In this document: one piece after another, positions 951 through 31,845 of the stretch | How positions within the stretch are numbered: position 1 is the first letter of the stretch | Layout: each line of letters starts with the position of its first letter | Source of the DNA: Podarcis cretensis | Lineage: Eukaryota | Direction: 5' to 3' | Length of the DNA: 64,000 bases | NCBI GenBank assembly: GCA_951804945.1 | Contig: OX638151.1 | Span: forward strand, 61,132,001 to 61,196,000 | Notes under the pieces: generated by a model | The model's input: only the letters and a program-made list of their open reading frames with translations | Databases searched by the model: none | What the model was told of the DNA's origin: nothing | Position numbers and translations under genes: made by a program

Positions 951-1397
951 TAAAGAAAAAAATCTTGCACATACATTAAGGAGCAAGTCTGTGCCCTTGG
1001 TCCTACCCCAAGCATTGGACACACTAGTTGGCCCCACTCTAAATGCTGGCATGGACATCAGGGCAACGCAGCATGTACAATGTCAGGAGCAGGCCCAAGA
1101 CCATTGTGCCAGTCTTTAGTAATCACGTGATTTTCCTTTCCCATAAACAGTATGTGGAGGGTGGCCTTTTAGTTATGTTTCAATATATGAAATCGCTGCT
1201 GTGTAACAAATTCAAGGCAGCGTTGTACTAGGATTGTGTGACCATGCTAGAAAAACTGGCGCCTATGAATCAAGGGGCAATTTTGTAACATTTAGAAATA
1301 CATTGAATTTCCTTATGCTTATACCCAAGTTAGAATGTTTGGGGGAAATAATCACCATTTTTAATACTATTCTAATATTTTGCTTCAGTTTCTAGTA

Positions 1398-2125
1398 CCG
1401 TATTTTTTGCCCTATAGGACGCACTTTTTCCCCTTCAAAAATGAAGGGGAAATGTGTGTGCGTCCTATGGGGCGAATGCAGGCTTTTGCTGAAGCCTGGA
1501 GAGCGAGAGGCGTCGGTGCGAACCGACCCCTCCCCCTCTCCAGGCTTCAGGAAGCTATCCGCAAGCCTTGCGAGCCCGGGGGGAGTTCCCGCGGGCTCGC
1601 AAGGCTTGCGGGCGGCAGCCTGCAGCTCAAAGCATGGGGCGCCCTCCGGAGGATGCCCCGTGCTTCGCGCAGGTGTCCGCAAGCCTTGCGCGCCCGGGGG
1701 GAGTTCCCCCTGGGATCGCAAGGCTTGCGGGCAACAGCCTGTTCTGGGGGCTGGGGACGGGGGAAGCTCGGGCTTCCCCTGCCCCCAGCTCCCAGCAACG
1801 CAAGCAAGCTCCGGGAGCGATGGCAAGGTTGCAAAACCTCGCCATCGCTCCCGGACCTGTTCTGGGGGCTGGGGATGGGGGAAGCTCGGGCTTCCCCTGC
1901 CCCCAGCCCCGCAAGCTCCGTAGCGATGGTGAGGTTGCGCAACCTCGCCTTCACTCCTGGACCCCCAGCCCCGAGGATAAAAACAAAGTCAGGACAGCGA
2001 GCTTCTTTGCTCTTTGGGGCTGGGGGGGGGGAATAAATTTTTTTCTTTATTTCCCCCCCCAAAAAAAAAAAAAAAAAATAAGTGCGTCCTATGGGCCGGT
2101 GCGTCCTATAGGGCAAAAAATACAG
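1398..2125. mobile_element. Non-autonomous TcMar (Tc2-like) MITE, GC-rich, inserted in a splice donor
   Basis: 27-bp TIRs C(C/T)GTATTTTTTGCCCTATAGGACGCAC; TA TSD at 1396-97 and 2126-27; internal hairpin modules. Confidence 0.9.
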
Positions 2126-2128
2126 TAC

Positions 2129-2314
2129 CTTTAATGAATCTTCCTGAGTAGAAAAATCTTCATAGACACCAGAATGAAGTTCTGGAGCATTCAGCAAGAG
2201 CTCAGCATCAGCTATAGCCAGCAAAATCTTGTTAATTTCAACCAGGTATTCTGCAGGGAATGGAGATGCCCTCGTTGTTGATGAGAGGGGACCTTGAATC
2301 TTCTGCAAGACTGC
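2129..2314 (-). CDS. UTRN: UTRN exon (DMD ex42 equivalent)
   Basis: 186 nt, tag|...|gtactg; AVLQKIQGPLSSTTRASPFPAEYLVEINKILLAIADAELLLNAPELHSGVYEDFSTQEDSLK. Confidence 0.95.
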
Positions 2315-2392
2315 CTAAAGAAAAATAAACTTAAGCTTAGCTCTTTTAAAATAACTTCAGTATAAGATAAAAACAAATTTCATTTATTTGTA

Positions 2393-2612
2393 CAGTGGAC
2401 CCTTCAGATATAAACTTAATTCGTTCCGGGGGTCCATACGTACCCCGAAAAGTCCGCATCTAGAGGCGCCGCTTCTGCGCATACACAAAGCACACAGAGC
2501 GCTTCTGCGCACGTGCATGTGGCAAAACCCAGAAGTATACACTTCAGGGTTTGCCGCATTAGCAACCCGAAAGTTACATTACCCAAAGGTAACACAACCC
2601 GAAGGTCCACTG
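2393..2612. mobile_element. Tigger/pogo-like MITE
   Basis: TIR CAGTGGACC.../...GGTCCACTG with TA TSD; internal inverted repeats. Confidence 0.8.
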
Positions 2613-3171
2613 TATTTGCTTTATGTCCTATCTTTCAGGTTCAATGCAGATTAAAGCCTTTTTTTAAAGTACTGAACTGAAAAATAAGGTATTAAAATAT
2701 ACCAGATAAAATCAAGTTTTTAAAATTGAAATCCTATCCCCAAAACTAAAAATCCCTGCCATGTGACTCATTGTTATAATCAGAAGGAAGTATATCTACT
2801 TTGTCCAGAGCAGGTACACCAATAACTTACTTTCTTTAAAATGAAACACCCTATATACCAATACAAATATACTCCAGTCAAGCAAGCATCACCTCTTCTC
2901 AATTTATCAGCTCCAGTTATGGGGAAAGAGTGGAGATAGCCCACCCTAAATTAACAAAGTCTTTTCCCAGGTTCTCGAAATGTGGACATTCATTTTTATA
3001 ATTCTCAGTTGGCGTGGAGGCTAAGGCATGCCCATGATGACTTCTGACATTTTATGTCTATAGACACAGTAAGCTAAGTAAAAAGAGAACACTAAAAAGC
3101 ATGTTTTCCTACAGATAGCAAGAGCTTCCTCAAAATAGGAAAGGAGCTATACAACAAGGTTAAAACATATA

Positions 3172-3428
3172 CCGTATTTTTCGCTCTATAAGACTCACCA
3201 GACCGTAAGACGCACCTAGTTTTTGGAGGAGGAAAACAAAAAAAAATATTCTGAATCTCAGAAACCAGAACAACAAGAGGGATCGCTGCACAGCAAAAGC
3301 AGCAATCCCTCTTGCTGTTCTGGCTTCTGGGATAGCTGTGCAGCCTGCATTCACTCCGTAAGACACACACACATTTCCCCTTACTTTTTAGGAGGGAAAA
3401 AGTGAGTCTTATAGAGCAAAAAATACGG
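3172..3428. mobile_element. TcMar (Tc2-like) MITE
   Basis: TIR CCGTATTTTT(C/T)GCTCTATAAGACTCAC at both ends; TA TSD. Confidence 0.88.
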
Positions 3429-6400
3429 TAACTTTATTCCATACAGAGCATATCATTGTTTGGGGAGCTTCTTTCTCCTTCTTTAAAGCAGAAAGCATCA
3501 GGAGGAATGTGGGAAATAAAAGTACTTTGAAGTGCTGTGCCTGAGCCCCATCAACTTCTGGAAAACCATGAGTTCCCCAACTCTAGTCTAAAAGAATCAA
3601 TTAGACAAATTCATAGAGATTAGAGTTCATAGAGTTCTGAATAGCATAATAGTTGAACTTAAGCACCATAAGCTGATGTTGATAAACAACAGTAAATGGT
3701 CACCTTCATGCCTTGCTTCCAGAGGCATCTGGTTCATTGCTGCTGGAAACATAACACAGGACGAGACAGACCTTGGTCAGATCCCCAAAAGCAGTTCATT
3801 CAAAAGGGAACAGCAATTATCTGCTACTGTTCATCAAAGTTGTATTCTGTCCTTCCTCCAAGGAGCTCAGTTTGGTGTATGAATGATTACCAAGCCAACC
3901 TTATAACAGATGCAATGAGCTAGATAATACAGTATCCCCAACTGGCTAATCACTAAAAGATGAAGCCAATCAAAACCAGGCACAAAAATATGGTTTATTC
4001 CTTTTCTGAATCACCATATACAGAATTGCATCTTCATCAGAGTCCAGTGCAGAGTGAAGGTCAATTGCTGTTTTGTCACCTACAGTATGCCAAAAATTAA
4101 TGAAAACCTCAAACCTCAGCAGCCTTATGTTCAAGGTTCAATTCAGAGAAGACAGCAACTATGATTTTCCAGATCCTACACAAACAAAGGGCATTTGAGC
4201 TAGAAAAATAGACTGGGGCAATTCATATAAAATATTTTTAAAATATAAACCGCAAACCAATGGTTAATACTTGGTGCAGCTCTACACACGCAAATCCATC
4301 TTTTTGATTTCTCTTCATTTACTTGAGCACTACCTGTACAAAGGAGAATGGGGGTGACAATCAGGCTCCCACCCTGTCTGATATTTGCATGCTGACATCA
4401 ATTCTTAACAGGAGGTTTCCTATGTGAAGTCCAGTATGCAGAAGGGAGGTGATTTGCTGCTACAAAGCAACGACTGGTACTTTTCCTAAATACATTTTCT
4501 GTGGGGTAAAACTGATCCAAACCTGTTGCAGGCCACCTTCACTCATATTAATTCACCAATTTCAGCCCTTTTTGTAAGAAAATAATTGTGACCCATTCTC
4601 CTCACACTATCATCCCAACCTAAATTCCCTGACTTTAAAGCTGCTGTTAGCTCCATGGGAAGAAATGGAAGTAGCTGCTGACAAAACAGGGCACTAAATT
4701 GGGAGGACTTTAGGCATCATTATTCTATGCTGCATAAGCTTGAATTTGAGTCTTTCACATTCTATGTTCTCCTCAATAATTGGCTCTGGGCTTTAAAGTT
4801 ATAGGAGAGTCATAAAGAGATTGATTCATTTAATTATAAAGTCCCATAACCAGAAATGCAAAAGTATTTGACAGATTGCCTAATGCACAGGCTTGTCCAA
4901 AAAATTACTTACTGCTTCAGACAACTCCTCACTATTATATAAAATATAACAACAATTCTTATGACAGACTAAATATTTGAGAAAAGTGGACGCATTAGAA
5001 ATGGAAAATGAAAAGCTTTGTATGTATGAATAATTGAAACAGACAAGCTTTCTGAAGTCAGTATCACAGTACTGCACTCAATAAAATTCTCACAAATATT
5101 TGACTAAACAGCAGATTTTAATACATCCAATTTAAACACATCCAAAATAAAATCATAAGGAGTCAAATCAAAATCGGATCAGGGGATCACTTGACCCAGG
5201 GCTTACCAAGGCTCAAGAAACTGCCCAGAAGCATAGCAGGATATGACCCTTCTCCTTTGGTCATGCTCACCTGTGAGCAAAATCTGAACACAAGGAAAAG
5301 TTGAAAGGCCCAGGAAAAGCCTTAAGAAGAGATGGCTAATGAACAGAGATAAAAATAATCACAGATTCCCCTTCATAGATATCACAGTTGTCCTGAGGCC
5401 AGAGAATTGAAGAGTAGCACATTCCAGCTTTTGCCAACAGCCAGGAAACCTAGGGTCACTACCTCCCGAAAGAAACATTGAGGCAACAGGGAGACCAACT
5501 GGCCCTTACCATCAGCCAAATAAGAAGCAGATACAAAGAGCTCACTTCTCCCCATCCTGCCTGAAAAAATACTCAGCTTTAGCTGTGTTTAGCCCCTGGG
5601 ACTGCTAAAGTAAGAAGAAAGAACACAGGCCTCATCCATTGGCCAAAGGGACCAAAGTCACCAATTGCTATTCAAGCAGATGAAGAACAACCTTGCCTGA
5701 ACTGGATATAAAGGCCCTCTCACAGCTCACCACTTTGTTCTGGTTTTGAATAATCTCCCTCCTTCACCTTTTCCTTTTTCTCCTGCCTTTTTACCATAGT
5801 TTATAAACCAAATGACAGGGTCTTTCTCTCATTCTCTCTCTTTCGTCTGTCCGTCCCCCCCCCCCTTTGATTAATATGAGACACATTAGCAGACAATTAT
5901 CTGAAAAACAAGACTGAAAATATAGTAAATAGATAAAGAAAATCCACTTCTTTCAAGATTTCACATGCTATTGATAAATAATTTATATGAAATGAAGCAA
6001 CCTGAATGTAAGTAAATATGCTTTCGAATCTGATCTTTCGCTACCCTGTATGGATCTAGCCTCAAAACTCAGTCATAACATTGCTGGATCCACTCACAAC
6101 TGAATGTGTTAATGGCCAATGTAACATTTCAAAAAGAGATGGCAAGTTCTTGTAGCCCAATTATAGGAATGTGTCCTCTTCCTTAGTGAGGTCTAAAACA
6201 TTAAACTCCAGCTAGATGGACAGATCCTCTATCAGCGTCCTTTACCACAGGGTAAATTTTCTGCAGTGGTCCATTTTAGAATTTATTGACAATTTTATTT
6301 TGTCAATAATATGATGACATTATTGACAAAAAAACTAAAAAAAAAAACCCATCCTCTAGCAACAGTTACAGTACTAGTAGTGAAAGTATATTGGCTAGGT

Positions 6401-6463: not shown

Positions 6464-6616
6464 CTGCAACCTCCCCTCATCTTCTGCTTCCTCTGTTCCA
6501 GAAAGGCTTCCATCTGTCTCACTGAGCCAGTGCAAATGACTGTCTTGTTCTGTCTTATATTGAGAGAATGAAGGGGACAGCTCCACCACCTGTCTCCTTT
6601 GTAACGACCTAAGTTT
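6464..6616 (-). CDS. UTRN: Extra UTRN exon homologous to DMD exon 40 (not in canonical human utrophin); probable cassette exon
   Basis: 153 nt, phase 0/0, ttcattctttgcttatag|...CAG|gtaaat, no stops; KLRSLQRRQVVELSPSFSQYKTEQDSHLHWLSETDGSLSGTEEAEDEGRLQ. Confidence 0.8.
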
Positions 6617-30026: not shown

Positions 30027-30561
30027 CTGATCACAAGAGAGAAAACACTTTAACAACCACTTTTCAGGATGCAGGCAGAAATGTTGTCCATTTCCGAAGG
30101 CATTGTGCAAATATTTCTGATTCTGTTTTTTATAACTCCTAAATTACTCCACATGCAAAATTATTTTAAAATAAATATTCAGTTGCATACTTTCATCTGA
30201 GTCTGAAAATGGATCCAATCCAGAGAGCTTCTTCAGGTGTGTGAGGGTTTGTATTCAACTACAGGGAATTCTTTTCTCTGAATAGCTTTGAGCAGCTGCT
30301 GCCCACACACAAATATTACATTACAAATGGCTTGTGAAAATCTCAACTTGCAAAGAAAATGTGTGTCATATATTATGATGGGCTGTTGATGTCATGGAGT
30401 TTCCTGAGCAGTTATCTGGATTTTGCCCATTGTCTCTTTCTATTCAGGAATGGTCTCACAGTCAAGACTCAAAAGGGTATTGAGGGTAATCTGGCTTTGT
30501 CCCTACTACCTATAGTGATAAATTCAGTCAACTACAAACCTTACAGCTACTAGGCTGGTTA

Positions 30562-31046
30562 CTGTATTTTTCGTCCCATAGGACGCACCGGCTCATAGGA
30601 TGCACCTAGTTTTTTGGTCGGGGAATCGAAACCAGGTCGGGGAACAGTGGGATGGCGGCGCTGCACCTCCCCGCTGTCCCCCCAACTTGTGGGGCTGCCC
30701 GATGTCTGCCCGAAGCGCGGGGTGCTCTACTTCAGCGCTCCCCGCGCTCCGTGCAGCAGGCTGCAGATGTCTTCCCGAAGCGCCGGGCGCTCTGCTTTCA
30801 GCGCGCCCCGCGCTCCGGGAAGCAGGCTGCTATCCGCAGCCTAGGGAGCCCTGCGGGAACTCCCGTGGGCTCCCCAGGCTTGCTGATAGCTTCCTGAAGC
30901 CTGGAGAACGAGAGGGGTTGGTGCGCACCGACCCCTCTCGCTCTCCAAGCTTCAGCGAAAGCCTGCATTCACCCCATAGGATGCACACAGATTTCCCCTT
31001 CATTTTTGAAGGGGGAAAAGTGCGTCCTATAGGGCAAAAAATACGG
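30562..31046. mobile_element. TcMar (Tc2-like) MITE, same family as 1398-2125, opposite orientation
   Basis: TIRs C(T/C)GTATTTTT...ATAGGACGCAC; TA TSD; 30880-31046 is near reverse complement of 1398-1560. Confidence 0.9.
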
Positions 31047-31845
31047 TAATATGCAAAGAACTGTGCAACAGTCCCTGTGCCCAAAAGAGGCTTCTTTGAT
31101 CTTATGCTTCTTGAATAGCAGCCCCATATGCCAGATGGCAACCCACTTTTGGAAGCAAGTAAACTCTAAACAAGCTTGGAATATGTGGGCCTGGTCTTCT
31201 ATTCAAAAGGAGGATATGATCAAATATCATGACAGGCACACCCAAGCACACAGGTAAGGCAGATTTTCGGAAGCCAGTTATAATATATAATCATATACTA
31301 TGGAGGGTACTGACCTCACACTTCGATTTAACCGTACTGAAATACCTCTATATTTTAGGGGAAGTGTGCCCGTACTTTTGTGTTTTTGAATGCATGGCGC
31401 AATTCAAATAATCTCAGCACAATTGCACTTTTCTCCCAATCCCCCTATGACCAATGTTGTTTTTATTCCAACAGCATCTCCATATGGTCAAAGCTCCAGC
31501 TAATTTATAGGCTACTCTGAAGATTTCATCATCAGATCTTGCAGGATTACACACTACCTATCTCTCTGTTAAAAATCTTCATTTTAAAAAAAGAAGTGAG
31601 ACAGTTCTAGTATTCCTATTTATATTGTAATACTGAACAAGCTGCCAAATTTTTAAAACGAGGTTCCACAACTGCATTTTAGTACCATGGTATCAGGGAA
31701 CAAAGGAATGCAAAACACACTTTTGTGTTGCTTTATCCTTTTTTTGAGAGAGAGGTTTTTATGAAATGCACTATATAATGCTTTGAAGTAGCCAAAGAAT
31801 AACAGAGGTAAATAAGCAACTCTGTTCTACATTAGCAGGGCTTAC

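Follow-up and report, generated by a model that had tools for sequence, protein, structure and literature searches.

Masking of a 5' splice site by RNA structure has been described for a handful of genes. In Drosophila CG33298 the donor is masked by a box 185 nt downstream (PMC2724269), structure masks the donors of MAPT exon 10 and SMN2 exon 7 (PMC9977717), and at the MLV donor weak U1 pairing matters only in combination with structure (PMC2794156), as described in the available portions of these papers. According to PMC8052449, active splice sites show a depletion of complementary regions that are conserved. The locus analysed here lies in a 64,000-nt stretch of Podarcis cretensis DNA (contig OX638151.1, hereafter the window), where a MITE, termed M, sits inside the donor of an exon. 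It resembles the stem-masked donors in having a predicted duplex over a weak donor and predicted competition with U1. It differs in that the partner strand lies ~700 nt from the donor, compared with 185 nt in CG33298 and a local partner in MAPT, in that the duplex is predicted here by folding calculations, and in that the stem is a by-product of transposon ends.

As for the element, the most similar described systems are non-autonomous Tc1/mariner-pogo MITEs of lizards, the Anolis families TcMar-N4, N6 and N13, which, in the sections of PMC3014272 available, share with M's family the TA duplication, short TIRs starting C(C/T)GTAT, lengths of 300-900 bp and thousands of copies. For neither has an autonomous partner been found; in the present genome the TIR start was absent within about 1.5 kb of all 30 DDE_1 loci inspected (of 119 matches). 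Unlike the anole elements, M has a GC-rich interior with many hairpins, and its TIR departs after the first six bases, so that only the TIR start is alike. N4 is said to be similar to a Tc2-related frog element (PMC3014272), and TC2-like elements are reported from geckos and snakes in the accessible text of PMC7325037. M's own family is a candidate member of the Tc2/pogo group.

Two further systems concern pairing between repeats. In inverted Alu loop-out, as covered by the excerpt of PMC13019027, related repeats flank an in-frame exon within about 1 kb and can pair across it, an arrangement repeated here by M and a second related MITE, U, upstream of the exon. In contrast to Alu pairs, each MITE has an earlier-forming self-pairing, the cross arms are shorter, at 29 and 89 nt compared with about 300, and one arm of M overlaps the donor itself. 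The same excerpt gives a correlation between pair stability and skipping only for exons with a weak acceptor and a strong donor, at R2 0.06, and notes that inverted pairs also flank many constitutive exons. In SOS splicing the trigger is base pairing of ITRs within the transcript, as it could be for M; the portion of PMC12779559 available describes it for exonic or UTR insertions, with exonic Tc1 copies spliced out and intronic ones not. M, however, starts 3 nt inside the intron and would become a substrate only through use of a distal donor or retention of the intron. In the open-access literature nothing was found on the utrophin locus in Podarcis, and none of the papers listed was described as dealing with a MITE that masks a donor with its own TIRs. 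M is thus composed of ordinary parts in an unusual position. What is new here is the empty allele, the filled site under three species labels, the equal consensus match of the donor in both allelic states, the predicted delay of the stem, and the element U with its possible pairing across the exon in the finished transcript.

The exon, the insertion and its alleles

The features on which the analysis rests are listed in window coordinates.

1393..1401, minus strand: distal donor-like site ACG/GTACTA, 4/11 consensus matches
1395..1424, minus strand: distal arm, complement of +1..+30
1396..1397, no strand: TA target-site duplication, distal side
1398..2125, no strand: MITE M, 728 bp with 61% GC; TIRs of 27 bp that differ at 1 position; hairpins in the interior; no protein recognised
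1406..1476, minus strand: local subterminal hairpin at the distal end, -45.4 kcal/mol, leaving the donor-complementary tail free
1547..1549, minus strand: TGA in frame with the exon upon read-through
2099..2128, minus strand: donor-side arm (+1..+30), TIR plus GTA, with six U at +9..+14
2123..2131, minus strand: 5' splice site AAG/GTACTG; +2/+3 are the target-site TA, +4 onward is MITE
2126..2127, no strand: TA target-site duplication, donor side
2129..2314, minus strand: utrophin (UTRN) coding exon, 186 nt, 62 aa, phase 0/0, residues 1894-1955 of P. muralis utrophin P0129
3170..3430, no strand: MITE U, related to M and located in the upstream intron, 257 bp between flanking TAs, with ends complementary to M's ends across the exon
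6464..6613, minus strand: upstream utrophin exon, ends approximate

The reading frame is open throughout the 186 nt of 2314-2129 (minus strand), and a pyrimidine-rich AG acceptor precedes the exon. Its boundaries coincide with those of annotated lacertid utrophins residue for residue; both of its splice sites are real, because the flanking exons join exactly at both ends in these proteins. The peptide is identical to that of P. raffonei and, over its 62 residues, has one difference each to P. muralis, P. lilfordi and Zootoca, and these 0-1 differences from the NCBI Podarcis utrophins, together with colinear neighbouring exons, identify the exon as utrophin. Further, it matches Varanus utrophin at 84% and is homologous to dystrophin 1994-2039. 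P0129 aligned by tblastn in 46 colinear segments. The next exon downstream lies outside the window, with its start 443 bases beyond the left edge (L039:457, where L039 coordinates equal window coordinates plus 900), and the intron 3' of the 186-nt exon measures 2,571 nt, or 1,841 nt without the MITE. The exon peptide gave no match in Pfam, and Rfam gave none over window 1000-4000. Among the 15 cluster members listed (of 47) together with P0112, all 10 long lacertid isoforms contain the exon, though their source species may have either the filled or the empty site; the exon is also held by 120 of 120 full-length homologues, but the query contained part of it, so this circular figure was not counted. 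Skipping would entail an in-frame loss of 62 aa, probably including the first 40 or so residues of a spectrin repeat, which would be cut since the next repeat begins 66 aa past the exon end.

The first-pass annotation had placed the TA at 2126-2127 as +2/+3 of the donor, now AAG/GTACTG, and all of these coordinates check (G+1 is 2128, the TA 2127-2126). Its reconstruction of the earlier donor was also right: deletion of the MITE with one TA gives AAG/GTACTA, and a relative, organism F, carries the empty allele. The complementarity it had described over +1..+30, with a single G-U pair, was recovered as two 30-nt arms (2099-2128 and 1395-1424) that are 97% complementary, the sole mismatch being a U(+5).G wobble. 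The second donor-like site, ACG/GTACTA, and the stop that it had noted behind it are likewise present, the TGA lying in frame at 1549-1547; this site keeps the original +1..+8 bases, and its use would yield a 916-nt exon. The insertion is not a product of chance, as the exact TIR pattern with TA occurs at 5,011 ends genome-wide against 0 for the reversed control, and an empty allele exists. Because the TIRs of the family start CCG in 50 of 54 ends, the donor at the time of insertion was most likely AAG/GTACCG, and the present T at +5 would be a later CpG-type change.

Donor strength was gauged by counting matches to the donor consensus and by U1 duplex energies. The filled donor matches the consensus at 5/11 positions (U1 duplex, -6.5 kcal/mol), the empty donor at 5/11 (-5.6 kcal/mol) and the distal site at 4/11 (-4.3 kcal/mol). 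By these measures the donor was weak before the insertion, which did not lower its sequence strength. A score of 5/11 is the joint lowest among plausible donors for 18 utrophin exons, whose ends were taken from tblastn and are in a few cases uncertain.

Four DNA runs were compared over L039:1600-4000, one individual per species, with assembled contigs that drop rare variants. The empty allele, for which a comparison of the orthologous site in relatives had been proposed, was found in run X14 (organism F) as one 815-nt contig in which L039:2293 is followed directly by 3024, the join being flanked by 472 letters on one side and 343 on the other. It lacks exactly 730 bp, that is, the MITE plus one TA, and is consistent with the predicted donor, its single-letter differences being only partly listed. 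The site is filled in X4 (organism A), X5 (B) and X7 (D), where contigs enter the TIRs from both flanks at low, flank-like depth, reaching 23 and 33 letters into the TIRs at the two junctions in A, 32 and 27 in B, and 29 and 21 in D. Under a 31-letter bridging rule, X4 and X5 each pass at one junction and X7 at neither, with TIR sequence present at both junctions in D. Flank divergence from the reference is 0.8% in A, 1.4% in B, 2.2% in D and 3.5% in F. The simplest reading of these sequences would be a single insertion that postdates the separation from F and predates the divergence of A, B and D. M is regarded as a genuine insertion into a functional-type donor, confined to one clade.

The first-pass annotation had further suggested that the insertion may be polymorphic, which the runs do not bear out: the one run compared for each of A, B and D has the filled site, and the contigs listed for them include no empty one. 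Segregation of filled and empty alleles within species is very improbable, given that the filled site is common to three species labels up to 2.2% apart and that the family copies nearest to M reach no more than about 93% identity. What leaves it some room is the sampling of one individual per species, the loss of rare variants from contigs and the comparison of only the listed contigs.

None of the runs listed as containing the locus is on record as RNA, and four guessed-RNA runs were examined (X21 and X22 for A, X15 and X17 for F). None of the 4 showed a splice junction that joins or skips the 186-nt exon, a blank that is informative on neither inclusion nor skipping. X22 did hold one 182-nt spliced contig (L039:8624-9242) that links upstream utrophin exons at window 8468-8310 and 7861-7724, with the intron at L039:8761-9210 and 11 letters of the next exon. 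In carriers the exon has acquired 1-2 amino-acid changes where about 4 would be expected under neutrality (P 0.09-0.23, not significant and of low power). One of the differences in organism D, T>A at L039:3045 (window 2145), produces Q57L 17 nt upstream of the donor; one further D difference is unlisted. The protein encoded by the exon thus appears unchanged or nearly so, and its conservation in carriers leans towards continued use.

Folding and transcription order

The duplex between the two arms has an energy of -52.2 kcal/mol. Folding of 1380-2160, an analysis outlined in the first-pass annotation, placed the full 30-nt stem in the MFE structure, with z = -22.4 against 20 shuffles, a value that any intact MITE would give. 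Opening of -3..+6 costs 10-14 kcal/mol in the finished transcript, from the point at which the distal arm is complete, which exceeds the energy of the U1 RNA duplex. In nascent RNA, by contrast, the ensemble cost stays at 0.8-2.9 kcal/mol for all 13 lengths folded, the longest of which reaches 729 nt past the donor; with pair span restricted to 700 or less it is 1.2-2.4 kcal/mol, compared with 4.0-7.5 for the empty allele. The donor therefore stays open in folding for ~730 nt of transcription, or 11-44 s at an assumed 1-4 kb/min. The distal arm emerges about 1.8 kb before the next acceptor, and as this much of the 2,571-nt intron is still to be made, the stem would have time left to displace U1.

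The hairpin at the distal end (1406..1476) was considered as a shield of the donor and rejected: with the hairpin enforced, its free tail pairs with about -1..+14 (-498.6 versus -479.8 with the arm open).

The element U was absent from the first-pass annotation and is new here. The MFE of 3450-1380 is cross-paired, the 5' end of U pairing with the 3' end of M (89-nt arms, 84%) and the 3' TIR of U with the donor-side TIR. This fold covers +2..+30 and lies 51 kcal/mol below the self-paired form, but U self-pairs with a probability of 0.955 before the donor is transcribed. With U included, the nascent opening cost is 5.9 versus 8.0 for the empty allele (MFE differences).

Masking of the donor, from which the first-pass annotation had inferred possible competition with U1 and in-frame skipping or NMD, would thus be favoured thermodynamically, in the finished pre-mRNA and in the full-length transcript only, while the order of transcription argues against it. 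The question is a kinetic one that folding does not settle. M is arranged like a stem-masked donor but, in these models, resembles one in thermodynamics only, and we would not class it as one.

Competing readings of the insertion

We consider it probable that the insertion is tolerated, with the exon still mostly spliced in. A TA-targeting MITE entered the TA of the utrophin donor, probably in an ancestor of several lacertid species, and as the duplicated TA preserved the donor core, the exon would likely still be included. U1 and exon-definition factors may engage the donor during the ~730 nt that are transcribed before the complementary arm exists, and the six-U run added by the TIR (+9..+14) may aid the donor through TIA1-type binding. 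TIA1 binds U-rich tracts next to weak donors. A U-rich motif is listed in the available part of PMC7404189. The 30-bp stem would then form mostly on committed or protein-coated RNA, skipping would be minor, and the insertion would have persisted as close to neutral.

It is possible, if unlikely, that the MITE instead made a constitutive exon partly skipped, with the TIR stem covering the weak donor and U looping the exon out. Carriers would then produce an in-frame utrophin lacking 62 aa, more so under fast elongation or low body temperature. The 30-bp stem of -52.2 kcal/mol, the cost of opening it in the full transcript and the 51 kcal/mol advantage of the U-M cross-paired fold all speak for this, as does the weakness of the donor (5/11), given that structure attenuates weak donors (PMC2794156). 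Precedents exist in CG33298, MAPT, SMN2 and inverted Alu loop-out, and TIRs pair in vivo in other animals (PMC12779559); the statements drawn from these papers cover the portions available. Yet the donor is open for ~730 nt of transcription, U self-pairs before the donor is made, and among Alu pairs stability tracks skipping weakly and, in the excerpt of PMC13019027, for exons with a weak acceptor and a strong donor only. Skipping would, moreover, remove ~40 residues of a spectrin repeat, whereas three species labels carry M and the exon is conserved.

Improbable is the proposal that the distal ACG/GTACTA takes a share of splicing, whereby a 916-nt exon with nearly all of the MITE and a premature stop would lead to NMD, or SOS splicing of the paired TIRs could partly restore the frame. 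The distal site did retain the original +1..+8 bases, and a read-through stop is present. It is weaker than the proximal donor (4/11; -4.3 vs -6.5 kcal/mol), is located 730 nt beyond it and is partly enclosed in the same stem. Internal exons as long as 916 nt are poorly defined. In the portion of PMC12779559 available, SOS splicing removes ITR-flanked elements, imprecisely, from worm and human-cell mRNAs, which would lend the proposal some plausibility, but reptiles are not described there. We regard as unlikely the joint proposition that utrophin has gained a lineage-specific cassette exon by RNA structure alone, in which the TIRs would seal the donor from 700 nt away and U would loop the exon out, body temperature and elongation rate would tip the balance in these ectotherms, and distal-donor transcripts would be natural vertebrate substrates of SOS splicing.

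If the insertion is neutral, as the preferred reading of a tolerated insertion would have it, TA-targeting transposons can insert into a GTA donor and leave it intact, since +2/+3 are restored by the duplicated TA. It would also follow that a weak donor can tolerate a 30-bp stem over it in vivo. If it is not neutral, the locus would offer a dated case in which alternative splicing of a dystrophin-family gene arose in one lineage through the pairing of transposon ends. The clean pair of filled and empty alleles in closely related lizards opens to ordinary RNA-seq the old question of how distant a complementary strand can lie and still block a donor.

The M family and neighbouring elements

The first look at the genome returned 4,835 family candidates, and a TA is found on both sides here and in 29 of 31 other copies among the matches listed. 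M has the TIRs, a TA duplication verified against the empty site, the short length with no recognisable transposase and the high copy number of a MITE of Tc1/mariner-pogo type. None of its six long open frames contained a Pfam family above the cut-off, the one sub-threshold match being to SSI (E 0.006). The closest family copies reach at most about 93% identity to M, and the nearest copies of U 95-96%.

A G directly precedes the TA in 14 of 54 family ends. The ACG/GTA at the far end is a latent donor of most family copies and generic to the family, and the outermost G-C pair of the stem derives from the GTAC target, so that it too is generic rather than peculiar to the utrophin site. Genome-wide, 139 TIR ends of the family follow AGG. 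Among 29 other AGG-preceded loci examined, 18 have an upstream open frame of at least 28 aa; Pfam returned nothing for 24 upstream frames at such loci, an insensitive search, as the true utrophin exon gives no match either. At 2 of the 29 other AGG/TA-TIR sites, L051 (G000:C1:133602651) and L059 (G000:C2:89798427), the sequence without the element reads AAG/GTAAGT, equal to the consensus donor. They may represent additional hits on real donors, or coincidence, with about 0.5 expected by chance. At a further locus, L033 (G000:C12:46072889 region), the far end of the copy and its flank form ACG/GTAAGT, a near-consensus donor composed of TIR end plus TA. The family thus seeds latent donors generally.

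Another copy of M's family lies within the window at 30560-31048, mid-intron between the utrophin exons at ~31962-31819 and 30026-29877. On G000:C2, at 117.9-118.8 Mb, at least nine DDE_1 (pogo/Tigger-type) matches are clustered, most with long open frames; the cluster is probably an expanded domesticated transposase family.

Closer to the exon, a third, unrelated TA-flanked MITE (window 2393-2612, ends CAGTGG...CCACTG) is located ~80 nt upstream of the acceptor, bringing the number of MITEs within 1.1 kb of the 186-nt exon to three. The intron that holds M also contains, at window positions of about 545-960, a high-copy repeat with very high repeat depth in the DNA-run comparison, which we take to be probably a truncated retroelement end.
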